NCBI RefSeq assembly: GCF_006345805.1
Contig: NC_043011.1
Span: forward strand, 4,898,001 to 4,962,000
DNA length: 64,000 nt
DNA from: Octopus sinensis
Lineage: Eukaryota
Direction of reading: 5' to 3'
Shown here: one piece after another, positions 11,622-62,174 of the stretch
Layout of the letters: each line of letters opens with the position of its first letter
Position numbering within the stretch: position 1 is the first letter of the stretch
Notes under the pieces: model-generated
Seen by the model: only the letters and a program-made list of their open reading frames with translations
What the model was told of the DNA's origin: nothing
Database searches by the model: none
Translations under genes and position numbers: made by a program

Positions 11622-11846
11622 TTAGCTGGCAGAAACGTTAGCACGCCGGGCGAAATGCGTAGCCGTATTTCGTCTGCCCTTACGTTCTGAGTTCAAATTC
11701 CGCTGAGGTCGACTTTACTATTCATCCTTTCGGGGTCGATAAATTAAGTACCAGTTACGCACTGGGGTCGATGTAATCCACTTAATCCGTTTGTCTGTCC
11801 TTATTTGTCCCCTCTGTGTTTAGCCCCTTGTGGGTAGTAAAGAAAT
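11622..11846 (+). mobile_element. SINE family B
   Basis: Near-identical to 54924-55157. Confidence 0.85.
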
Positions 11847-12314
11847 ATATAATTCTGCTCTATAGGAACTGATTTGGAATCAAGACACAACAGTCACCTA
11901 CTACAACAACATAAAAAAGACCACCACCACCACCACCGTCATCGCTACCACCAAAATAGCTACGAAGGGTAGAAAACCAACGGTAGCAACAGTATCTACA
12001 TTACTAACAGTAACACTAATAACGGCAGCAGCAGCAGCAGCAGCAGCAGCTAAATTGCTTTAACGCTCTTTAAGACGATAATAGACTTTTACGGTATAAA
12101 CATTAATTAACAAGTAATTTAAATCCCACACATTAATTATGGATTAATTAAGAAAGTCCAATTAATCTTCTGGTAGCTTGATGTTCAATTAAAATGCCTT
12201 TCTAAATGGATTTCTTTGCAAACGTGTGCGGCGACGGCGGCCAGTGGTGGTAGTGGCGGTAGCGGTGGTGATGAGATTATATTGTTTGTGTGTGTGTGTG
12301 TGTGCCTGTGGGCA

Positions 12315-13649: not shown

Positions 13650-14074
13650 CTTTTATTCTTTTACTTGTTTCAGTCATTTGACTGCAGCCATGCTGGAGCA
13701 CCACCTTTTAGTCGAGCAAATCGACCGCAGGACTTATTCTTTGTAAGCCTAGTACTTAGTCTATAGGTCTCTTTTTGCCGAACCGCTAAGTTACAGGGAC
13801 GTACACACACCAGCATCGGATGTCAAGCGATATTGGGAGGGGGGGGGGACAAACACAGACACACAAACACACACATACACACATATATATATAAATACAT
13901 ACATATATACGACGGGCTTCTTTCAGTTTCCGTCTACCAAATCCACCCACAAGGCATTGGTCGGCCCGGGGCTATAGCAGAAGACACTTGCCCAAGTTGC
14001 CACGCGGTGGGACCGAACCCGGAACCATGTGGTTGGTAAGCAAGCTACTTACAAGACAGCCACTCCTGCGCCTA
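13650..14074 (-). mobile_element. SINE family A, full length
   Basis: Head TAGGCGCAGGAGTGGCTG through tail GAAACAAGTAAAAGAAT. Confidence 0.9.
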
Positions 14075-14087
14075 CAAAGAGTGAGTC

Positions 14088-14205
14088 GCTTACAGCACTT
14101 AGGTTTCCCAAGCGATCACCCATCTAAGTACTCACGAGGCTCGATGTTGCAAAACTTCGTTGATCGGATGAGAACCGATGCTTTCAACGTGATATGGCCG
14201 TAAGC
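14088..14205 (-). pseudogene. 5S rRNA: Dispersed full-length 5S rRNA copy, probably a pseudogene
   Basis: Minus strand reads GCTTACGGCCATATCACGTTGAAAGCATCGGTTCTCATCCGATC...AGTACTTAGATGGGTGATCGCTTGGGAAACC...GTGCTGTAAGC (118 nt), with paired termini. It has several substitutions, no T4+ terminator, and is not in an array. Confidence 0.9.
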
Positions 14206-19935: not shown

Positions 19936-21093
19936 ATTAGTTCATTCCATTTTGTCCATTTAACCTTATATCCATTTGCCTACAGAATCTCATGCTATAT
20001 AGTTATATTTATATAAATATATAAGAAATCTATACTTATTTAGACTTGTCTAATATAATATAGGTTGACAGTTTTACCCTTAAATCTTAATGTTATTTTA
20101 CCTATAGAAGTTTATTTAGACTTGCCTTTATAAACAGAAGTAGTTTTGCTTATAAAACATCCTGTAGCTTTTGCCTCTGTAACCATATACTTTCTTATTT
20201 AAGCCTTCCAACCGCCATGTAGTGTAGGCAATCGTCAACATTTCTCTACTGTTCTTGACTCTAAGCAGTCGTTTCTGTTCTCTCCAGTTCGATCCCTACT
20301 TTCTCAGATTTGCATCATAAGTTCCACTGAAGCAAGTTTCTCCGCTCCCAGAATTTGATGGTTTTGAATTAATACCGATGCTTCAGTAACTTTGCTTATT
20401 TTTTTTTGTTTCTGGGCAGAGGTGTTGGCCCTTCGCAAACCCATTTTTACCTCTGGTAAAAGGTAGATCATATTAGTCTGGCCCCCTATCCTGAAGAAGA
20501 TGCTGAGCTCATTGTCGTTACGGTTCCCCTAAAAACAGTTAGATCAACATAGTTAACGTTTTCCTTGGACAACTGCAAGTCGACAGTAACAAGGGAAAAT
20601 TACGTGCAAATAGGGATTACAGAGTGTTGACTTTCTGAAAAGAAGGAGTGCTGCTTGCTCTGGGTCCAGAGTGTGAGTAGACACGATATTGATTGCCAGA
20701 GGAGGAGCAATGAGTTAGTCGGGAGTGGTGGTGGTATGTGATCTGTCTCAGCCGAGAAACAGTGGTTGCAACAGTGGAGCAGAGAAGACAACTTTATGTA
20801 ACTATGAATACAAGCATCATGATATCAATAAAGAATCAAACCTATCAATTTCGTGTTGGGGCAGAAACGACCGTCTTTGAAGGGAAGCTGAGTTCGTGGG
20901 AAGGTTTCGATTTTAGTTTGCAGTGCAGCCATTTCATATCAGTGATGTCATTAATGTTGATGTCCTCGAGAAAGGCGCAGATATTACATCGATTTTACTG
21001 CATTTCGATATTATTTTGAGATAAACCAATGAGTTGGGCATGGAGCCAACGCCGGAGCCTCTTCACGATCGCTGGAAACTAGTCGAAATAATA

Positions 21094-21490
21094 CTCTTTA
21101 CTTGTTTCAGTCATTTGACTGTGGCCATGCTGGAGCACCGCCTTTAGTCGAGCAAATCGACCCCAGGACTTATTCTTTGTAAGCCTAGTACTTATTGTAT
21201 TGGTCTCTTTTGCCGAACCGCTAAGTTACGGGGACGTAAACACACCAGCATCGGTTGTCAAGCGATGTTGGAGGGACAAATACACACACAAGTACATACA
21301 CACACACATTCATTGATACATATATACGACGGGCTTCTTTCAGTTTCCGTCTACCAAATCTATTCACAAGGCTTTAGTAGGCCCGAGGCTATAGAAGAAG
21401 ACATTTGCCCAAGGTGCCACGTTGTTGGACTGAACCCGGAACCATTTGGTTCGTAAGCAAACTACTTACCACACAGCTAGTCCTACACCT
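21094..21490 (-). mobile_element. SINE family A, full length
   Basis: Collinear with the other copies. Confidence 0.9.
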
Positions 21491-21872
21491 AATAGCCAAA
21501 TTTCCTTCAATTTCGATGTACCATTATGAAAAAGGTAGGATATGTTGTACAATGTAGTTTCTGATATAGAAAATGACAGGACGTTAACAAATGAAACACC
21601 TTTAAACAGATATCTGTTTGGTCAGAGATGACCTGGAAAGGACAGGCTCTAGAGCTGTTGGATCCCCGGGCGGGCTAAATTTCTGTGCCCTTACATGTAT
21701 GTATGTATGTATGTATGTATGTATGTATGTATGTATGTATGTATGTATGTATGTATGTATGCATGTATGTATGTATGTAAAACGACATGCAAAGGTACAT
21801 GAAGCCCAGTTACAACTACAGCCGGCTATTGCCGGTAAAGTTTTAGATGCCAATTCTGTACAAGACCTCCGT

Positions 21873-22202
21873 ACGTAACTGGTACTTATTTAATCGACCC
21901 CGAAAGGATGAAAGGCAAAGTGGACCTCAGCGGAATTTGAACACAGAACATAGCGGCAGACGAAATACCTATTTCTTTACTACCCGCAAGGGGCTAAACA
22001 CAGAGGGGACAAACAAGGACAGACAAACGGATTAAGTCAATTACATCGACCCCAGTGCGTAAATGGTACTTAATTTATTGACCCCGAAAGGATGAAAGGC
22101 AAAGTCGACCCCGGCGGAATTTGAACTCAGAATGTAAGGGCAGACGAAATACGGCTACGCATTTCGCCCGGCGTGCTAACGTTTCCGCCAGCTCGCCACC
22201 TA
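21873..22202 (-). mobile_element. SINE family B with partial tandem duplication
   Basis: Body repeated after the junction AAAGAAATAG|GTATTTCGTCTGCC. Confidence 0.85.
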
Positions 22203-23539
22203 AAAAGATGTACTATTGTATAAAACTAAATAAACCAATTATCCTTTGAATCACCTTTTTGTCTGGAAAAGGGGTTTCCTTTCCTATCATTTAACTCATT
22301 TCATTTGCCTTTCTTTAGCAAAATATTTTTTATATTATGGCAATAATGGCCAACGGATTATTAATTTGTGTAGCAGCATCCTATAGAATGTTTTGTGTTA
22401 TTTGTTATTTGTTCCGGCTCTCAATCTGAGTTCAAATCCCGCTAAGGCTAACTTTGCCGCTCATCCTATTGTGTTTCACAAATTGACTCGTTTTAGCAGT
22501 GTATTAGCGTTATGTGTGAGAGTCGATGCCTGGCAGTTTCCGTATCGGCTTTATCCGTTTTGAGTTCAAATCCCACCGTCAGAATCAGTGTTGGGCTAAA
22601 GGCAGCCATAAACAAGTGTACAAGTATTGCAGCCGATCAGTCTCAGTACCAAAACACTTGCTGGTAGGAGACCATGCGAGCCAAAATAGTTCACCTCTGA
22701 GAACATAAGACTGAAGATCTAAAGATCCCGTTCAATTTCGGTTTTCGGCTTGACAATTTAGGAAGGCTTTGCTCTTAAAACTTTTATTACTGGATATCAC
22801 TTCGTCTGTGTTTACCTTATGAGTTCATATTCCGCCGAGGTCGACTTTGACTTTCACCCTTTCGGGGTCGATAAAACAAGTCCCAGTGAAGTACTGGGGT
22901 CGATGTAATCGACTAGCCTCCTCCAAAGAAATTTCAGGCTCTGTGCTTGTAGTAGAAAGGGTTAATGGATATCATTGTAGTTTAATTGACTTAGGGAGAT
23001 TGATAGAAATAATGGTTTTACCGGTGACATATATATATATATAAATCGCTACATAATCATCATTATAATAAGATTATGATTACGAGAGAATCTGGCGTTT
23101 CAGATTTAGTTCAGCATATCATATGAAACAAGTTTTGCTAATTTGTTACGTCACTTTATTTCCTGAGTTTAGCTTCATATGTCGATTTTGCCCTAAACAT
23201 TTTGGGAATCGAAACAATAAGTATCTGCCAGGTGTTGCACATCAAGTTTTCCTTGAAATGTGTGACTTTATGCCTAAATCTTGCTTAAAATGTTGGCCTT
23301 ATGACGAAGTTTTGTGTAATTATTGTTTAAGATTAGATTAACTTTGACTGGCAAAATCGAGAGTGAACTAAAATTGCTGGAGTCGAGTTTGTCTTTCATG
23401 ACACTGTGAACGAGAAAATAAGTACCAGTCAAGAACTGATCATGTTTTATTCGATTGTTCTGCTCTTCGAATTTTATGACCTCGCTAAAAATAAAGAAAA
23501 TATTGTTATGTGTAAACCATAAATAGCAGCTTTGCCGCC

Positions 23540-25587: not shown

Positions 25588-26479
25588 GCGAAAGGAAGTG
25601 AATCAAACTTGTGGCGCAGGGCAGAAGGCCCAGTTGGTACATGTGTAGCAGTAAAGGTCAAACTAGGTCGACACGTTAAAGTTGTTAGCACCAGATAGAA
25701 AAAGCCTGAAGAGTTCAATTCTCATCGCAATATCCCACTTCAAATAGAGATAGAGTTAGTTTTGTATAAGTGTAAATTCCTTGGCTACTAGAGATAAGGT
25801 TGGGCAATTGCCATACAGATGATGCCCTTTGAGTCAGAAACACGTGTCGACGACCATCCTCTCATCTCCAGATTTTAATCATGCACTTTCCCTAATAGCG
25901 TAACAATTTTAGGAAATATTTGATTTTTGAGATTGTTTCCGCTTCTCGTATGGTGCTGCTATTTGGTAATCATGATACATCTTCTAGTGGTGGTGATAGC
26001 TTCAGCAGATCAAGTATTTATGTTTTATATTATTTGATACACCTGTATTTATCTTAATGTCATATAATTTCCCGTTTTGTCCATAGTAACAAGCGGAACA
26101 TGAGAACTCCTTTGTCTGCGAGAAAGCACGCGTTGACAAATAGATTGAAACCAATTGCTTTACCTGTATGTTTACAATTGAACATGTGAATTTATGAAAT
26201 GGTCAACAAAATGTTTGATTTAAAAAAAATATTTAATTTGTAACGTGTTGTTCATCGCATTCGCATTAAATGCATATTGAATACTAAGAACTACACGTTT
26301 CTTTGTATTTTTTTCTGTCATTGAGGGAGTTGTGAGGCGTGCTAAAAATAATAGTTAAATAACGGTTTTTGGATAAACCTTTTAAATTAACAAAAACATT
26401 TATTTACACGAAAGAAAATTACCGGAGAACTTTCATCTACTTCTTCCAAATCTTTTTGTTAAAACTGTATTGAAACAAT

Positions 26480-26951
26480 AATAAATCTCTGAACGAGGTA
26501 TAGACAGTAACTGACGACAATGTGAGGGATATTTGCCATCTCAATATGGCTAACCACTAAGGGTGGGTGTTACTGTAGCTTGTAGCCCCAGGAGAACCTC
26601 TCCTCCAGCTGGTTATAGGCACACTTTCTGTGCCCTATCGGTATTTGCAAAGGGAGGTCATCCTTCCCTCGTCAACCTAAGTGATACGCACGGACTGCAG
26701 TTTCTGGGTCTTGACCCATCATCAGTGTACGACAATCACCGGTTTTCGATGAAAGGAGTCCCAATGCAAATATTTATATCCTTTTTCCAGTAACTTTTCG
26801 TCACTGATCTTGAAAAAGTGTATACAAGCAATAGTAAATCTCTGAACGAGGTATAAACAGTAACTGCACGACAATGTGAGGTATATTTGCCATCTCAATA
26901 TGGCTAACCACTAGTGGTTAGCCATATTGAGATGGCAAATATACCTCACAT
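26480..26951 (-). mobile_element. Retrozyme/Penelope-pLTR-type insertion with TSD
   Basis: ~353-bp period partial tandem repeat with one HHR and a terminal palindrome centred at ~26912. Flanked by a 14-bp direct repeat TGTATTGAAACAAT (26466-26479, 26952-26965). Confidence 0.75.
26681..26739 (-). ncRNA. Type I hammerhead ribozyme
   Basis: Minus strand CGTACA-CTGATGA-TGGGTCAAGACCCA-GAAAC-TGCA-GTC-CGTGCG. Complete core, stem II hairpin, palindromic stem III, GUC cleavage triplet. Confidence 0.85.
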
Positions 26952-27979
26952 TGTATTGAAACAATTTTGGGGGAAACATTGTAATGTGTTTATCGAATAC
27001 AACATGTTGTTCATTGCATTTGCATTAAATGCACATTGAATGCTTAAAACTACTTGTTTACTCGTTTCTTTTTGTCATTGAGGTGGTTGTGAAGTGTGCT
27101 AAAAATAACAGCTAAATAACACTTTTTTTGGATAAATCTTTTAAGTTTCTATTATCGCATTGAATGTATATTGAATGGTTCAAACCACAAAGCACATGTT
27201 GTTTACAGATATTGACAACACGTGCTATTTCCAGGTGCAGACACGCACAGTATGACAGCTTCCAAATCCTGTTTCTAATTTTTGAAATGCTGGCAGCCAA
27301 ACCAACCAAATCCCAAATTAGCAATGATTATTCGGCGCTTTCATACTATTTATTTGTTTTCATGACAAAAACGAGCTACACAGCGCCTGACTGTTTAGGC
27401 TTTATTATAACCTCTTCAGCGAGGCATAGCTTTCGCCGTGCAAGCTGAAGGAGTAATGAATGAATCACTGGGTACATTAGGATAAAGGATTGTACATTAA
27501 TTGGCTATAGAAAATAGGATTGCTTAGCGATTGCTTAATTGCTAGTGAAGTAATCGTTTATAACTAATTCGCTCCCGCTTGGCAGTTTAGAGTGACATCA
27601 CTAATGATAAAAACACTTAAATCCTTCTCACGATAATAAAGATATTAAAAGACTTTGAAGACATGCTGTTTCATATATTTTTAATGAATGCCATGGGAAA
27701 TACCCCCAGTACCCCCCTCTCTCTCTTTCTTTCTCTCTTTCCATCCCTGCCCATCCTTATATATTTATCTACCTACCTATCTCTCCCTGCACTAGGCCAC
27801 TCAAAGAGAAGAGGCTGTGTCATGTTTAATGATGGATGAGAGAGGAACACTGAAGTTGATAGTCAGCGACTACAGTTAGTTGCTGTTATATATCAACTTG
27901 CTTAGCAGCCAGAGCAGATAAGCTGACTGGTGGAAGTTTAAAAACTTTATTATCACCATCATCCCATTCCATTCCTCTG

Positions 27980-28825: not shown

Positions 28826-29472
28826 CTAGCAGTATCGCCCGGCGTTGCTCGGGTTTGTAAGGGAAATAACTATATAAGCATTTTTAGAGAGTTATAGCAA
28901 AAAAATAGCAAAAAATGCATTAAAAATGGAAAAAATATGATGGTAAATTTTTTTTTAAATCGTTGACTCATCGTAGACATTTTTAGAGAGTTACTTCCCT
29001 TATATAATAGCGAAAAAATGCATTAAAATGGAAAAAAAACGATGGTAATTTTTTTTTAAATCGTAGACTCATGTAGACGCTTTCTTAGCCATTTCTGTTT
29101 TGGTGTCTTCAAGCCATGAAGTCGTTGTTCTAAAAGAACACTGGTCTCCTTGACAACGCATTACGACGTTGATTTCCTTACACTCCCTTCCCCACAGGTG
29201 CAGGTGTGAGCGTGGACGCCAACTCCGCCGCCATCGACACACGAAAAATTATGCATTAAAATGGAATAAAAAATGATGTTAAATTATTTTTAAAATCGTA
29301 GACTCATCGTAGACTCATCGTAGACGCGCGCTAATATTCAGACGGGCTCGATATGAATCACGACTATAAGCTACCCGAATTTGGTTAAACTGCACCGCAA
29401 AATGTGGGAGTAGTTAGGAATCTAAATCGAAGGGGACAGACACTCACACAACTACAGTTTTATATATATAGA
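28826..29472 (-). mobile_element. Non-autonomous Helitron
   Basis: Minus strand TCTATATATAT...CCCGAGCAACGCCGGGCGATACTGCTAG. Confidence 0.85.
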
Positions 29473-29589
29473 TATACATAGCGCAGTAGTGGTGAGATGT
29501 AACAGCAAAGAAAAGCATACATTCACTCTCTGCATGCAATTAGACTCGGAAAGTTCTTGAGGAACCCATTGACCCAATTTGCTGACTTT

Positions 29590-29830
29590 TCCGATAGCAC
29601 ACAGGTCTCAATGAATGGTTGAATGACCAAATCCAAGCTTCTCTGCTAGTTCCTCAACAGTTACGATGAGATTTTGTTCCACCAGGGTTTTCAGGATGTC
29701 CTTGTCGAGTTCTACAGATCTTTCAGGATGAGGCTCGTCTTCTAGGCTGTAGTTTATGGCTCGGGATTTCTGGAACCACCATTGACACTGCCTTACGCTT
29801 ATTGTCCAATCCCCATATACTGCATTAATA
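29590..29830 (-). pseudogene. Mariner transposase N-terminal fragment
   Basis: RNINAVYGDWTISVRQCQWWFQK...SLEDEPHPERSVELDKDILKTLVEQN...TVEELAEKLGFGHSTIH matches the mariner bipartite HTH region. Confidence 0.85.
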
Positions 29831-30100
29831 TTTCTTGTACTTTGCACACACTTATATTCTGTTATTCTTTTATATGTTTCAGCCTTGAGGTTGTGGCCAT
29901 GCTGGATCATGTGTGTGTGTGTGTGTGTGTGTCTATCTGTCTGTCTGTCTGTATGTATATATGTATATGTATGTGTGTGAACAATAATATTTTCAACAGA
30001 TGTGTTGCAAATGTATCTGATTGTTCTCAAGCTTCAATACTGTGTGTGTGTGTATGTGTGTGTGTGTATGTATGTATGTATATGTATGTATGTATGTATG

Positions 30101-30132
<32 letters not shown>

Positions 30133-30176
30133 TGTATGTGTGTATGTATGTGTGTGTATGTATGTGTGTGTGTGTA

Positions 30177-30209
<33 letters not shown>

Positions 30210-30439
30210 ATGTATGTATGTATGTATGTATGTATGTATGTATGAGTGTATGTTTACTTTATTACTAACACAAGCCACTACGGTTATTTAATGAAAGTCT
30301 TCCTCAAATCACTCTCTCTCTCGCTATTTTCACTCACTCTTAGCTCTTAGCTTCCCATACATTTTACTCATGTATCTATCAGCGTCATAGACAGAATACT
30401 TTCAGTTTAGTCTTCCTCAAATCACTCTGTCGCTATTTA

Positions 30440-30707
30440 CTTTCATTTCATTCGTTGCCCACTGTGTGTGTGCGTTTGCGCGTGGTGTAAACCAGACTAA
30501 GAAAAGCATTTGACACACACACCAGAATGTGAGTTTTCTGTAAATTTTGCTTAATTGGAGTTTAAATTTTAAAAACTGGACCTGGCATGACGCGATGCAT
30601 TGTACTCTCAAAAATGCTAGGTAAATTGTAATTGAAGAAATCCTATATTGTAGATTTGTATAACTCCCAAAGGGAGGCAGATAAAATCTGCCTTTTATAA
30701 TAAGAGA
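30440..30707 (-). mobile_element. Truncated Helitron 5' end, head-to-head with 30714-31852
   Basis: Reverse complement of ~30714-30975. Confidence 0.75.
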
Positions 30708-30713
30708 TATATA

Positions 30714-31852
30714 TCTCTTATTATAAAAGGCAGATTTTATCTGCCTCCCTTTGGGAGTTATAGAAATCTAAAATATAGCATTTCTTCAATTACAATTTAC
30801 CTAGCAATTTTAAGAGTAGAATGCATCGCGTCATGCCAGGTCCAGTTTTTAAAATTTAAACTCCAATTAAGCAAAATTTACAGAAAACTCACATTCTGGT
30901 GTGTATGTCAAATGTTTTTCTTAATGTGGTTTACACCACACGCAAACGCACACACACACAAAGGGAGCGAATTGTTTCACTGACGCTATCACCCTTCTCC
31001 TCCTTTGTCTTTGCAAGTTTGCAGCTATTAAAGTGAAAACAGTGAATCCGACAGCGATAAAGAAAACGAATTGGTACCTGAATGGAGTGAAAATTTAAAA
31101 ACTGTTTCTTTCGGTGAGTTTTCTGGAGAAACTGGACCAAGCCACAGACTTTCCCAGAAGAGTAAAGCCTTAGACTATTTCTATTTACTTTTTCGAATGA
31201 GCCTATTTGAAATCATTACGCTAAACGTAAACAAACCGAAAGAAAGGATAGTTTGTTATTTCCCACAACCTTAAATGAAATTAAGGCCTATTTTGCCATA
31301 AATATTATTATGGGTATCAGAAAGTTACCCAGAATAACAAATTCTATCGTAAAATTTTGTTGTATACCCAATTGAATATTAGCTAATAACCCATTTTCTA
31401 TAGCGATGTTTGAACAAAATTTTAATAATTTTACAGAAAGTTACCCAGAATAACAAATTCTATCGTAAAATTTTGTTGTATACCCAATTGAATATTAGCT
31501 AATAACCCTTTTTCTATAGCGATGTTTGAACAAAATTTTAATAATTTTACAGAAAGTTACCCAGAATAACAAACGAGCCCTTCTGGGTATTAGCGCGCGT
31601 CTACGATGAGTCTACGATTTTAAAAAAATTTACCATCATATTTTTCCATTTTGATGCATTTTTTTCGCTTTTATATAAGGGAAGTAACTCTCTAAAAATA
31701 TCTACGATGTATCAACGATTTAAAAAAAAATTTACCTTAATTTTTTTTCAATTTTTAATGCATTTTTTTGCTATTTTTTGGCTATAACTCTCTAAAAATG
31801 CTTATATAGTTATTTCCCTTACAACCCGAGCAACGCCGGGCGATACTGCTAG
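30714..31852 (+). mobile_element. Non-autonomous Helitron with internal ~116-bp tandem repeat
   Basis: 5' TCTCTTATT, 3' CCCGAGCAACGCCGGGCGATACTGCTAG; its 3' region is shared with 28826-29472; tandem units start at ~31318, 31434, 31550. Confidence 0.85.
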
Positions 31853-35397: not shown

Positions 35398-35669
35398 ATA
35401 TATTGGGTTATTCTTCCGGCTTAAAGATATTCCGGAATTCAGGGTATCATTAAAACCTTATCTTTTGGTGATAAACTCAAAGCAGGATGGCTTGGAATGT
35501 TGTCTCACTTTCGAGATTTATCAGCGTGATGCTATTTGTTAACCTTTATAATTTGTATTTACTAACGATCTGACGGTTTTCCTGGAATCAACGAGGAATA
35601 TATACGCACGTGCTCTCAGAAAACATATATATGCACATTCTTATATACATATGTGTGCACTCACATATA

Positions 35670-35902
35670 TATTTCTTTACTGCCCTCAAGGGGCTAAACA
35701 TAGAGGGGACAAACAAGGACAGACGAAGGGATTAAGTCGATTACATCGACCCCAGTGCTTGACTGGTACTTTATTTATCGACCCCGAAAGGATGAAAGGC
35801 AAAGTCGACCTCATTGGAATTTGAACTCAGAACGTAACGGCAGACGAAATACGGCTACGCATTTCGCCCGGCATGCTAACGTTTCTGCCAGCTCGCCGCC
35901 TA
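35670..35902 (-). mobile_element. SINE family B
   Basis: Near-identical to 54924-55157. Confidence 0.85.
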
Positions 35903-41268: not shown

Positions 41269-41685
41269 CTAGGGTGGTGAGCTGGCAGACATGTTAGCGC
41301 GCCGGGCGAAATGCTTAGCGGTATTTCGTCTGCCGTTACGTTGTGAGTTCAAATTCCGCTGAGATCGACTTTGCCTTTCATCCTTTCGGGGTCGATTAAA
41401 TAAGTACCAGTTATGCACTGGGGTCGATGTAATCGACTAAATACCTATGTCTGTCCTTGTTTGTCCCCTCTGTGTTTAGCCCCTTGTGGGTAATAAAGAA
41501 ATAGGTATTTCGTCTGCCTACGTTCTGAGTTCAAATTCCGCCGAGGTCGACTTTGCCTTTCATCCTTTCAGGGTCGATAAATAAAGTACCAGTTTCGCAG
41601 TGGGGTCGATGTAATCGACTTAATCCGTTTGTCTGTCCTTGTTTGTCCCCTCTGTGTTTAGCCCCTTGTGGGCAGTAAAGAAATA
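41269..41685 (+). mobile_element. Dimeric SINE family B
   Basis: Head plus two bodies inside one 15-bp TSD TATTTACTTCTGTGA (41254-41268, 41686-41700). Confidence 0.85.
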
Positions 41686-42621
41686 TATTTACTTCTGTGA
41701 TGTTCGTGTGTGTCGACTGGAGGGATACAGAACAGTCTTTCTCAGCCACCTTTTTTTTTTCTACTTATGGACCGTTTTGATATCTATTTGATTTGCTTGG
41801 ACTTTCCTAGCCATTCCATGTTTTTAAAAAATCCTATTGTATTTTTATAATTAAAAATTATTTTGGAATTGTAGAAGTGTAACCAATTTATTGCAGATAA
41901 ATTTTAACAGCAGAATCTCATGTGGGTCCTGAAGTGCCATATGGACCCTATTGAGCACCACTGATACCGAGGGTCACATAGTGTTGCTAAGGTTGCAATA
42001 CATTGGCATTACCTACCATCGAATGTTCCAGTTGTGGTATTTACCTGCTGAAATAAAATAAAATAAAATAAAAAAAATCTACTGAAATACATAAAATGTA
42101 AATATTATTCTTAGTAGTACAGTTGTGTGAGGGTGAGTTCTCTCATAGATTTATCAATGAAACAGTCTTCCGCATTCAATGTTGATACTGTAATGTTTAT
42201 ACGTAAGCTAGCAATAACTCGACCTTGATTATTCGCCTGAATGCGTCAATTACAAGTCGTATTCTTTATCCCTCAGTCAGGAAACCTAACTCTGCTTATC
42301 AAACTGGCTGATGCATTACATTGATTAAGGTTAAAGTATTAGTTACCTCCCTTTGGGAGTAGTGACGCAGATTCCTGCTTCCATCGTTTTCAATTGTTCT
42401 CCGCTAAGACAATCAAATCGATGTTGTGCATGGATGCTGCTTGGAAAATACATCAATGTCACATAATCTCATCAGTTTCCATATGGAACACTATGGCCTT
42501 ATGCTTAAATATTGTTGTCTTTCTCCTGCTCATGTTTGATTTAGCAGGCCTTTGATGAAGGGCATTCCGCCTATAAAAATCATATGAGTTCCAGGTTGTG
42601 TGTGTGTGTGCGCGCGCGTGG

Positions 42622-47251: not shown

Positions 47252-47476
47252 CTCTTTACTCTCTCTTTTACTCTTTTACTTGTTTCAGTCATTTGACTGC
47301 GGCCATGCTGGAGCACCGCCTTTAATTGAGCACCTCAACCCCAGGACTTATTCTTTTTGTAAGCCCAGTACTTATGCTATCGGTCTCTTTTTGCCGAACT
47401 GCTAAGTTACGGGGACATAAACACACCGGCATCGGTTGTCAAGCAATGCTAGGGGGACAAACACAGCACAACCAAC

Positions 47477-47507
<31 letters not shown>

Positions 47508-47737
47508 CCACACACACACATATATATATATATATATTATATATAATATATATATATATATATTATATATATACGACGGGTTCTTTCAGTTTCCGTCTAC
47601 CAAATCCACTCACAAGGCTTTGGTCGGCCCGAGGCTATAGTAGAAGACACTTGCCCAAGGTGCCACGCAGTGGGACTGAACCCAGAACCATGTGGTTGGT
47701 AAACAACTTACTTACCACACAGCCACTCCTGCGCCTA
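47252..47737 (-). mobile_element. SINE family A, young full-length copy
   Basis: Near-consensus; head duplicated at 48437-48601. Confidence 0.9.
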
Positions 47738-48198
47738 TTATTTATTCTGAAGTTAAGAGTTAGTGTCTGGTTTAAGATTAGATATAGAATTAGATTAAAG
47801 GATAATATGTGAGATAGGATTAAGTTTAGTAATAGAGATATTGTTAATGTGCACGTTACATTTAAAATTAGGACTAGCTATAAGGTTAACCTGAAAGCAG
47901 AATTAGGTTTGGGGGTGAATATTTTAGAGTTAGGGTTAAGGATAAGTTATATACAAAGTGCAAAATTTTACTAGTTAGTAATTCAACAGCGTTGTGTGAG
48001 AAAACAAGCGAGAAAAAACGAAGCTGGTTTTCCAGTTCTACGAATGGCATGGGTTCAAGGAAAGATTTCATAAACAATGAGAGTCTTTAAAATTTACGCT
48101 TCCTGTTTGAACGCTGTTATAAGTATTATATGTATACATTACAATTATACTCAACAACACGCGCTCGTAAACACCACACAGACACACACCACACACAA

Positions 48199-48231
<33 letters not shown>

Positions 48232-48345
48232 CACACATAAACAAGTGCGCGCGCACATAGCTCTGCTCTACATGTATGGATATGTATACCTATATATAAT
48301 ATAATTATATACATAAGCAAAAGTCTCCCTCTCACACTCCCTCTC

Positions 48346-48395
<50 letters not shown>

Positions 48396-49060
48396 ATATT
48401 ATATATATATATCTATTATATATATATCTATATTATACGACGGGCTCTTTCAGTTTCCGTCTACCAAATCCACTCACAAGGCTTTGGTCGGCCCGAGGCT
48501 ATAGTAGAAGACACTTGCCCAAGGTGCCACGCAGTGGGACTGAACCCAGAACCATGTGGTTGGTAAACAAATTACTTACCACACAGCCACTCCTGCGCCT
48601 ATTATTATTTATTCTGAAGTTAAGATTTAGGCTGGTTTAAGATTAGATATAGAATTAGATTAAAGGATAATATGTGAGATAGGATTAAGTTTAGTAATAG
48701 AGATATTGTTAATGTGCACGTTACATTTAAAATTAGGACTAGCTATAAGGTTAACCTGAAAGCAGAATTAGGTTGGGGGTGTAATATTTTAGAGTTAGGG
48801 TTAAGGATAAGTTATATACAAAGTGCAAAATTTTACTAGTTAGTAATTCAACAGCGTTGTGTGAGAAAACAAGCGAGAAAAAACGAAGCTGGTTTTCCAG
48901 TTCTACGAATGGCATGGGTTCAAGGAAAGATTTCATAAACAATGAGAGTCTTTAAAATTTACGCTTCCTGTTTGAACGCCTGTTATAAGTATTATATGTA
49001 TACATTACATATTATACTCAACAACACGCGCTCGTAAACACACACAGACACACACACACA

Positions 49061-49103
<43 letters not shown>

Positions 49104-49209
49104 AACAAGTGCGCGCGCACATAGCTCTGCTCTACATGTATGGATATGTATACCTATATATAATATAATTATATACATAAGCAAAAGTCTCCCTCTCACA
49201 CTCCCTCTC

Positions 49210-49260
<51 letters not shown>
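47572..49260. repeat. ~865-bp near-perfect tandem duplication
   Basis: 47572-48400 is repeated at 48436-49260; breakpoints fall in (TA)n. Confidence 0.95.
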
Positions 49261-49266
<6 letters not shown>

Positions 49267-49334
49267 CATATATATATATACATATATAGATATATATACA
49301 CATACAGTATATATATACAGTATATATATATATG

Positions 49335-54923: not shown

Positions 54924-55157
54924 TAAGGCGGCGAGCTGGTAGAAACGTTAGCACGCCGGGCGAAATGCGTAGCCGTATTTCGTCTGCCGTTACGTTCTGG
55001 GTTCAAATTCCGCCGAGGTCGACTTTGCCTTTCTTCCTTTCGGGGTCGATAAATTAAGTACCAGTTACGCTCTGGGGTCGATATAATCGACTTAATACTT
55101 ATGTCTGTCCTTGTTTGTCTCCTCTATGTTTAGCCCCTTGTGGGTAGTAAAGAAATA
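54924..55157 (+). mobile_element. SINE family B (central GCCTTTCATCCTTTCGGGGTCGATAAA, resembling the MetaSINE domain)
   Basis: 16-bp TSD TATATCGACAGATAGA (54908-54923, 55158-55173). Other copies at 10215-10370, 22800-22960, 32643-32850, 43020-43160, 63420-63620. Confidence 0.85.
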
Positions 55158-55726
55158 TATATCGACAGATAGAGCGATCATCGGATGGCTGGGACAATTT
55201 GACGGTTGGGATAGCTAGATTTTGCTTTTAGGTTCTGCTTGACACTGTCATTGAATCTGAATTTGGGTCTACCTATGTTTCGATAGTCATCTCCCAGCAA
55301 CAAAACAACTTTCTATGGGAGCCTATAACCGACAGGATTAACAACGTGGCTTCAATTGATGGTGCATGAATTGAAAGCCAGCTTTTCGGAATTTAAGATA
55401 TGTTTCCACTATTTCAATTACATGGCAAGTCTCAGATGTCGCATGGCGAAGGTTATGGTCTTTTTGATTTGCGTTTTCTAAAGTGCCCATGGTTTTACAC
55501 CATAGTGTAAAGCCGAGAGGATAATGGCTCTATGTGTGTGTGTGTACCAGATAAGCCACCCATAATTGGATACAACTCACCCAAACAAGAACTCACTACT
55601 TGAACAAAACTTGACTTAAACAGGATTCGTATAATCCTATCAGGTGGTGCTATTAATTTAGACATGGCCTGGACCAATCTTTGGTCGAAACATATCTAAG
55701 TTTATCTAAGTTTATATATATAATCT

Positions 55727-60946: not shown

Positions 60947-61022
60947 AAAATATCCCAGAACCCTATGAAAATCCAAAGGCCATCTTCAAAAGTTGGAAAA
61001 GCAGTTCATTTCTCGAAAGTCA

Positions 61023-62174
61023 ATGCATACGATGAAAATGGCAGTTAACATTAGTATTAACAGCTCTGCCAATATCCTACAAGTGTTAAATGATGAAAAA
61101 GCAGACACGTATTTACCTGTAATTTTTTATGTCGGTATTTCTATGCTATTTGGAGCAATCGGGAACAGCGCTGTATCTTATATATATTACTGCAAATTGG
61201 AGAAAACGGCGACAAATTTGTTCGTAGCCGTTCTTAGCGCTTGTGACTTACTCAGTTGTTTAATTTCTATGCCAGTTGAAATCGTCGGTCTACGATTCCC
61301 TTTGACCTTTCACAGTGACATAGCATGTCGCCTGATACGTTTTATTGTGGCTGTGGGAACAATCACATCAGCTTTAATTATATTTGTTATATCCGTTGAT
61401 AGATATTTACGCGTTTGTCGTCCACTTGGTAGACATTTTTCGCGTCGTTCAGCAAAAGTTGCGTCAGCAGTGTTGGTGTTTTCGTCAATATTGTTAGCGA
61501 CACCAGCATTTTTGGTTTTTGGTAAACAAAGAGTCCCAACCCGTATCAGTGGAATTATTGGCGAAGAATGCTCAATTGCTGAAGGTTTAAAAGACACAAT
61601 ATATCCCTTAGCCTACTACTGTTCTCTACTGGTAACCTGCTTTGCTGTATTTGTGGTTTTGATGACTTTGTACTTTCTCATCGGAATTTATGTGTGGAGG
61701 CATAAGAAGAAGAATCAAGGAAGAATACAAAAAGTGGTTTTTACGCATCCATCCAATGACCGTATGTCCGCTGCTATTTCTTCCAGCAGTGACAATGTGG
61801 AGGATGACCTGAAACTGCACAAGCAGTCCCGCCAGAAGATAACCCGTCCCATGAGCAGTCCAGTCGACCATCGACAGTCAAATTCAGTGAGAGTATCAAG
61901 GACCACTGTTATTATGTTTCTCATTACATTACTATGGATTGTTAGCTATTTACCTCATCTGGTCATGGTCACATGTGAAATTGTCGTCGAAGACTTCCGA
62001 ACTTCACTTGGCACCACAGGAGACGTTCTCTACAATCTATCATTTCGTTCTTACTTCTTCAACAATGCAATCAATCCATTTATTTATGGTATTTTCAATC
62101 TCCGCTTTCGGAAAGAACTTTTTATTTTATTGGATAACATCTTTGGTGCGTGTTGCTGCAAAAACAATCCATGA
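61023..62174 (+). CDS. Class A (rhodopsin-like) GPCR, neuropeptide/orphan-receptor-like, single coding exon
   Basis: Seven hydrophobic segments, TM1 GN, TM2 LSACD, TM3 Cys and SVDRY, ECL2 Cys, TM6 SYLP, TM7 NPFIY plus helix 8 FRKE, N-terminal NIS/NSS sequons and C-terminal CCC. The ORF-track start is a TTG. An in-frame TGA lies at 60966-60968, so the first usable ATG is 61023 (alternatives 61032, 61038). Confidence 0.95.
   Translation: MHTMKMAVNISINSSANILQVLNDEKADTYLPVIFYVGISMLFGAIGNSAVSYIYYCKLEKTATNLFVAVLSACDLLSCLISMPVEIVGLRFPLTFHSDIACRLIRFIVAVGTITSALIIFVISVDRYLRVCRPLGRHFSRRSAKVASAVLVFSSILLATPAFLVFGKQRVPTRISGIIGEECSIAEGLKDTIYPLAYYCSLLVTCFAVFVVLMTLYFLIGIYVWRHKKKNQGRIQKVVFTHPSNDRMSAAISSSSDNVEDDLKLHKQSRQKITRPMSSPVDHRQSNSVRVSRTTVIMFLITLLWIVSYLPHLVMVTCEIVVEDFRTSLGTTGDVLYNLSFRSYFFNNAINPFIYGIFNLRFRKELFILLDNIFGACCCKNNP

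Follow-up and report, generated by a model that had tools for sequence, protein, structure and literature searches.

The insertion, its tandem unit and its target site

The window (the whole 64-kb stretch of Octopus sinensis DNA analysed here) contains an insertion of 486 bases that is non-coding, carries one hammerhead motif and has ends resembling those of Penelope-like retrotransposons (PLEs). It is enclosed by a target-site duplication (TSD) of 14 bp, with the left copy at 26466–26479 (+) and the right copy, its exact repeat, at 26952–26965 (+). The two copies agree at 14/14 positions, cannot be extended, and are the only two occurrences of this word in the window; when 5000 pairs of 40-nt zones were drawn at random 300–700 bp apart, an exact word of at least 14 nt was common to 5 of them. 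Both TSD ends are ambiguous through microhomology (4 nt on the left, 3 nt on the right), and the last 4 nt of the left copy match the unit as well, giving a range of 10–14 bp. The target is AT-rich, with ATT on both strands. A symmetric ATTG...CAAT core of the TSD is only suggestive; this core occurs 17 times in the window.

Read on the ribozyme (minus) strand, the insertion runs from one TSD through the inverted 42 bp, the partial unit and the full unit to the other TSD. One complete, non-coding 353-bp unit with 44% GC occupies 26480–26832 (−), and a partial second unit, a 5'-truncated, pLTR-like upstream copy, lies at 26833–26912 (−) and includes the tail-equivalent 26833–26870. Over 81 aligned columns, 26480–26559 and 26833–26913 (offset 353/354) show 4 differences, of which 3 are substitutions and 1 is an indel. 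The direct part (26480–26912) amounts to 433 bp, or 1.23 units, a partial tandem arrangement of the PLE type.

On the ribozyme strand, self-pairing of the unit was strong (z = −4.2 as a linear and −5.1 as a circular molecule, with 0/100 shuffles as stable in each case), as is characteristic of non-LTR retrozyme RNA. The opposite strand gave z = −1.9, and four flanking 353-mers ranged from +2.0 to −1.6. Being non-coding, 353 bp long and 44% GC, with a type I hammerhead, the unit falls within the definition of a non-LTR retrozyme unit (non-coding, 150–450 bp, GC below 50%, type I hammerhead). An 'active' retrozyme has a minimum of two successive units carrying complete hammerheads; the window has one hammerhead. 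The locus fits only the 'monomer' class as described in a recent preprint (bioRxiv 10.64898/2026.07.22.740005). No second copy of the 353-bp element was found elsewhere in the 64-kb window, and the insertion had 0 matches in phage and plasmid collections. A bacterial promoter scan returned 0 sites, a result that has no bearing on a eukaryote.

On either side of the insertion lies an older 147-bp repeat pair with 81% identity (26242–26388 and 27001–27147), with a third fragment at 27155–27189. After subtracting the 486 bp of the insertion, the two copies are 273 bp apart. The pair was considered as a proxy for the empty site and rejected, because the insertion point is outside its coverage.

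A type I hammerhead motif on the minus strand

A type I hammerhead descriptor that tolerated one helix I mismatch was run on both strands of the 64 kb and returned 1 match, compared with 0.045 per shuffled window (200 shuffles). The motif (26680–26740, −) has the conserved core CUGANGA / GAAA / UH with helices I, II and III in type I order. C3 is 26725 and C17 is 26693, placing the predicted cut at 26693/26692. Helix I consists of 5 bp, an internal loop and 6 bp; helix II (26718–26705) has 5 bp, and helix III spans 26701–26694. A C1.1·A2.1 mismatch (26692/26726) adjoins the predicted cleavage site, and the base of helix II is U10.1–A11.1, not G10.1–C11.1, a pair described as highly conserved in hammerheads (PMC4209133). 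According to a review, a mismatch at 1.1/2.1 causes at least a 500-fold loss in engineered trans-acting ribozymes (PMC3138052). A2.1 could be explained by one CpG-type transition from G. The Rfam hammerhead models gave 0 matches at gathering threshold in the whole window and none at E ≤ 10. A preliminary description of this DNA had listed a complete type I hammerhead and named 26693/26692 as the cut to be tested; the motif and its predicted cut were recovered as a single match, but with both unusual pairs and without Rfam recognition. As judged from its sequence, the ribozyme of this copy is likely impaired. Fifteen Rfam miRNA matches were rejected, all being below gathering threshold and reflecting the perfect hairpin.

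Stem III is the palindromic AC-UGCA-GU, with 2 bp in the monomer. Pair probabilities of helices I and II were 0.72–1.0, and that of the monomer stem III was near 0. The ribozyme fold of the monomer lies 6.8 kcal/mol above the minimum-energy fold, in which the core is sequestered. The palindromic stem III is predicted to pair intermolecularly as an 8-bp duplex, and such a stem is the dimer-cleaving kind among metazoan type I motifs (PMC4209133). The near-zero monomer stem III and the 8-bp self-duplex thus fit the dimer mode, in agreement with the form assigned to this stem at the outset. Because it has a single ribozyme, the locus neither dimerises in cis nor excises a unit-length circle, which probably makes this copy a dead end. 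To call the insertion 'intact', as had been done, was an overstatement: its one hammerhead has no cis partner, no monomer can be excised, and a mismatch sits beside the cleavage site.

Palindromic junction and one-sided tail

The 5' end of the element, in the RNA sense, carries an inverted head-to-head copy of 26871–26912 at 26913–26954 (+), the last 3 nt of which belong to the TSD. The arms are identical at 42/42 positions with zero spacer and form an 84-bp perfect palindrome. When perfect palindromes with zero spacer were ranked by length across the window, the top 25 were all two-letter repeats except this one (26871–26954) and another at 30659–30762. The segment 26517–26559 (−) occurs three times, the other copies being 26871–26913 and, inverted, 26913–26954; one base differs in the first. 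The inverted copy ends at the unit position equivalent to 26517, whereas the direct 3' end reaches 26480. The interval 26480–26516 (−) is a one-sided 3' extension missing from the inverted copy, 37 bp long (37–41 bp with microhomology), which in this single copy corresponds to the 30–40-bp PLE 'tail'. Neither element end falls on the ribozyme cleavage site.

PLE insertions are described as having a partial tandem, an adjacent inverted 5'-truncated copy and a 30–40-bp tail at one end (PMC8557442; PMC8969392), and their hallmarks also include a hammerhead (PMC8557442). In Adineta vaga PLEs, the inverted pLTR falls short of the direct ones by 37 bp, the junctions form head-to-head palindromes, and TSDs are 8–10 bp long (PMC3846280). 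The octopus inverted copy is likewise 5'-truncated and directly adjoins the 5' end, with the polarity taken from the hammerhead. The palindrome is an inverted 5' copy of the PLE kind and not a retrozyme-specific feature. The 14-bp TSD, the 353-bp period with about 1.25 tandem units and the perfect terminal palindrome with arms of about 40 bp had all been noticed in the preliminary description and were confirmed; the palindrome had been left unexplained there, and the one-sided tail had been overlooked.

A 4-bp micro-hairpin (26554–26566) occupies the position in the unit that corresponds to the centre of the palindrome. Such hairpins occur at 22/353 unit positions, so that the coincidence is at the 6% level, compatible with a fold-back or with the joining of two cDNAs.

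Coding content

We analysed 201 ORFs of at least 60 aa in the window, low-complexity and shorter ORFs having been excluded beforehand. The linked RT/GIY-YIG ORF whose search had been advised was not found among them: none of the 201 ORFs matched an RT or GIY-YIG family, and the only family matches above curated cut-off were a 7tm_1 receptor and a Mos1-type HTH remnant. At just 486 bp, the insertion itself lacks the RT + GIY-YIG ORF of an autonomous PLE. No Pfam or protein relatives of the 353-bp unit were found. An ATG overlaps A9–U10.1–G10.2, with the cut 27 nt downstream, and its frame closes after 15–16 codons. In the anole PLE PAc, the ATG-to-cut distance is 26 bp (PMC11167929). Reading through the ATG frame (stops as X) gave 6 candidates, none at E ≤ 10, which is a weak test. 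A 62-aa upstream frame had 1 match (E 9e-5), to a 788-aa prokaryote-type surface-repeat protein (Listeria-Bacteroides repeats), and was rejected as chance.

Similarity between target and unit

The target DNA at 26461–26479 (+) resembles the unit's continuation, 26814–26832, at 15/19 positions and in register, which we propose as the primer-template pairing. When the 19-mer was slid over both strands (~128,000 positions), the target alone reached 15/19 besides the unit itself, and 4 sites reached 14. The simplest reading is that the 353-bp period pre-existed in the template, so that sequence 26814–26832 would have followed the tail in the template RNA and base pairing would have helped priming. 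Insertion into an older copy of the same element was considered but is not supported: the ±1-kb flanks scored 31–49 (background median 36, maximum 55). For the left 80 nt, a gapped alignment ranked in the top 0.1% among 6322 windows, and this rank dropped to 5.6% when the 19-nt site was left out.

Proposed insertion mechanism and rival explanations

The insertion is best explained as a young solo copy of a non-autonomous PLE derivative with a 353-bp unit, of the non-LTR retrozyme type, for whose insertion an autonomous PLE elsewhere would have supplied RT and GIY-YIG endonuclease (probability about 0.72). Directly visible at the locus are the TSD, the 1.23 tandem units, the minus-strand type I hammerhead, the inverted 5' copy, the 37–41-bp tail and the lack of an ORF. 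PLE-type ends combined with one hammerhead most likely make it a new host example of a known small hitch-hiking mobile element.

The anole PAc protein cuts and extends both strands with a preference for ATT, its tail is the interval between two RT start sites, and its substrate is uncleaved RNA (PMC11167929). Following this model, the enzyme would nick both strands of the AT-rich site 11–14 bp apart. The 3' end of the top strand would then pair (15/19) with the stretch of RNA that lies immediately downstream of the tail. The cDNA primed in this way would pass through the still uncleaved ribozyme site and continue into the following unit; the template would be a more-than-unit RNA, uncleaved or re-ligated. 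Two tail-bounding start sites like those of the anole PLE would predict bottom-strand priming ~37 nt upstream, and the inverted arm may have arisen in this way, from a second start site with 3-nt microhomology. Alternatively, it may stem from a fold-back of the cDNA at the 4-bp micro-hairpin. The two ends would finally be joined head to head.

Several points count against this explanation. Priming by pairing is inferred here, unlike the in vitro start of the anole PLE, where RT initiates at a position lacking homology to the cut DNA (PMC11167929). Both start points lie farther from the cut than those of the anole element, ~176 and 213 nt downstream of it, and an AC-rich start loop was established at neither. 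Moreover, the copy is the only one in the 64-kb window, and its hammerhead is unrecognised by Rfam. In favour of the PLE reading, Octopus vulgaris is reported to have recently active PLE families; its repeat annotation, in the available portion of that report, makes no mention of a ribozyme (PMC13282606). The full scheme, in which a retrozyme-type repeat undergoes the whole PLE reaction in trans, with both strands primed at two tail-bounding starts, a ~15/19-bp-guided first strand and a linear, heterogeneous tandem template without a circle, is put forward tentatively and is doubtful as a whole.

With regard to the template, which the preferred reading leaves as a sub-question, we somewhat favour a heterogeneous tandem-array transcript over a monomer circle, on the evidence of the repeats. 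The cDNA could possibly have run 1.2 times round a 353-nt circular RNA, with the repeat differences arising after insertion, but this seems the less probable course. Such a circle model predicts a more-than-unit copy across the cleavage junction (PMC7761336), and the fold of the circularised unit is very stable (z −5.1). A circle would, however, give identical repeats at insertion, whereas the direct repeats differ at 4/81 columns and the arms (42/42) and TSD (14/14) are identical. At the sole informative base, the inverted arm also equals the neighbouring copy and not the far one. Neither of two counts makes the surplus of differences between the direct repeats significant (p = 0.12 and 0.08), and repeat heterogeneity is a weak argument that leans towards a linear tandem template.

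Instead, the insertion could have come from an ordinary autonomous PLE, whose 3' end it would represent either as stacked 5'-truncated pieces (353 + 80 + inverted 42 bp) or as a PLE terminus with short tandem repeats. All its end features are PLE features, most PLE hammerheads are described as occurring singly and dispersed, in truncated copies (PMC4209133), and the ATG with the cut 27 nt downstream is near the anole layout of 26 bp, albeit a 1-in-16 coincidence. We nevertheless consider this reading unlikely, mainly because the 15/19 match of the target implies, on its simplest explanation, a 353-bp period before insertion. In addition, neither the ATG frame (15–16 codons, a weak test) nor the 62-aa upstream frame has PLE relatives, and the long helix I and 5-bp helix II are closer to a canonical than to a minimal PLE hammerhead. 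Still less probable is mobilisation by a LINE through twin priming, or DNA repair, with the palindrome as a DNA-level fold-back independent of PLE enzymes. L1 twin priming inverts a different, more 5' part, whereas the inverted part here duplicates the adjacent direct part; the 3' end has no poly(A) or simple repeat, and the 37–41-bp offset is within the PLE tail range (~12/353 positions by arithmetic). LINEs have been named as possible helpers of retrozymes (PMC7229834). For a DNA-level route speaks an unrelated zero-spacer palindrome 3.5 kb away, indicating that other routes make them in this genome. Finally, perfect zero-spacer palindromes are known as possible library products, and a fold-back read combined with chance matches might mimic such a structure. 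An artefact of sequencing or assembly would, however, not restore the flank via an exact 14-bp duplication, nor would it supply a hammerhead (0.045 per shuffled 64 kb) or a structured unit, and both flanks belong to one older repeat pair of 81% identity; this explanation is highly improbable.

Relation to known retrozymes and Penelope-like elements

The metazoan non-LTR retrozymes described by Cervera and de la Pena (2020; PMC7229834) include mussel elements of ~350–390 bp and the axolotl Rtz_353. The octopus element resembles them in its non-coding 353-bp unit of 44% GC with high self-pairing, in the single type I hammerhead of each unit, whose stem III has 2 bp and a palindromic tetraloop, and in its TSD of more than 4 bp with no LTR, PBS or PPT seen (PMC7229834). 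It differs in having 1.23 units with one ribozyme and a 1.1/2.1 mismatch, and in its inverted 5' copy and tail, which are undescribed in the main text of that paper. Plant LTR retrozymes are more distant, with type III hammerheads in two LTRs, PBS, PPT and a 4-bp TSD, against a single type I motif and a 14-bp TSD here.

With EN+ PLEs (Penelope/Poseidon; A. vaga Pen2a, PMC3846280; anole PAc, PMC11167929), the octopus copy shares the partial tandem, the inverted 5'-truncated copy with a palindromic junction, and a sense-strand hammerhead upstream of the 3' end. It also shares the one-sided 30–40-bp tail and the AT-rich target with ATT on both strands and a TSD (PMC8557442, PMC11167929), and, as in PAc, its cDNA crosses the cleavage site (PMC11167929). 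Unlike these elements, it lacks an RT-EN ORF and has a period of 353 bp instead of 3–4 kb. Its TSD is 11–14 bp compared with 8–10 bp in the A. vaga examples (PMC3846280), and its target DNA is similar to the template where priming would occur, which is not so for PAc in vitro (PMC11167929). As a solo, ORF-less, PLE-related offspring copy, it is similar to the 'monomer' retrozymes (Li, Clavereau and Pollet, bioRxiv 10.64898/2026.07.22.740005) and to non-autonomous Chlamys elements such as MRC1 (PMC8557442); the Chlamys elements are described as mostly without hammerheads, whereas the octopus copy has one. Judging from its sequence features, the insertion appears to work like a PLE and its unit to be of the non-LTR retrozyme type, so that the locus is neither an autonomous PLE nor an 'active' retrozyme.

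The preliminary description had rightly recognised a mobile-element insertion of the non-LTR retrozyme or PLE family, in line with the size, the GC content of 44% and the type I hammerhead (PMC7229834). Its choice between a retrozyme and a PLE terminus is largely a false one, since animal retrozymes have been argued to be non-autonomous PLE derivatives (bioRxiv 10.64898/2026.07.22.740005). PLE mobilisation of retrozymes was proposed previously (PMC7229834; PMC7761336), with phylogenetic support in the same preprint. That support comes from co-occurrence and pLTR phylogeny in 35 genomes that include no molluscs, and tails go unmentioned there; the octopus evidence consists of insertion junctions, with a 37–41-bp tail. 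These three sources leave open by what machinery animal retrozymes are moved and whether the circle serves as template. What is new here is the junction-level evidence and the cephalopod host; the link between PLEs and retrozymes is already in print. Searches of a literature collection without most subscription journals and repeat databases turned up neither a cephalopod retrozyme nor inverted ends or tails on retrozymes, although supplements may show such ends.

A short copy with a TSD, an inverted 5' copy and a tail provides junction-level support for PLE mobilisation of retrozymes. It also suggests simple tests across the genome, namely whether copies end at two fixed points, whether their repeats are identical or differ, and whether target and template resemble each other. 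Should the proposed reaction hold for the whole family, the circles of retrozymes would be by-products and not intermediates of transposition, and the integration mechanism of PLEs, still undefined, could be read naturally from short copies without an ORF, such as this one. As a single copy of a known kind, the locus is of moderate, specialist interest.

Other features of the window

A 496-bp zero-spacer palindrome (30463–30958) has 248-bp arms with 96% identity, and its central 52 bp are perfect. It lies within a 2.3-kb block (29306–31618) bordered by 45-bp inverted repeats (29306–29350 and 31574–31618), which also contains the Mos1-type HTH remnant (29611–30033, −). The block looks like a composite DNA-transposon derivative.

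A SINE-like dispersed family of ~230 bp with ~90% identity was found at 11624–11855, 21962–22200, 35665–35901, 41270–41690 and 54924–55162, and is partly tandem at 41320–41685. A weak tRNA-like match at gathering threshold (22680–22750, +) stands directly upstream of a member of the ~230-bp dispersed repeat. A second, microsatellite-associated family occurs at 13650–14074, 21092–21494, 47257–47740 and further places. The isolated 5S rRNA-like copy at 14087–14205 (−) is full length (76.6 bits) with several pairs broken, and is possibly a pseudogene or the head of a 5S-derived repeat. Two recent local tandem duplications of ~0.9 kb were located at 324–2199 (99% identity) and 47520–49298 (96%). 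The 7tm_1 receptor, which marks the host as an octopod, is an intronless ORF of the rhodopsin-family GPCRs (60969–62171, +), with 81% identity to an Argonauta 'neurotensin receptor type 1-like' protein and with Octopus paralogues.
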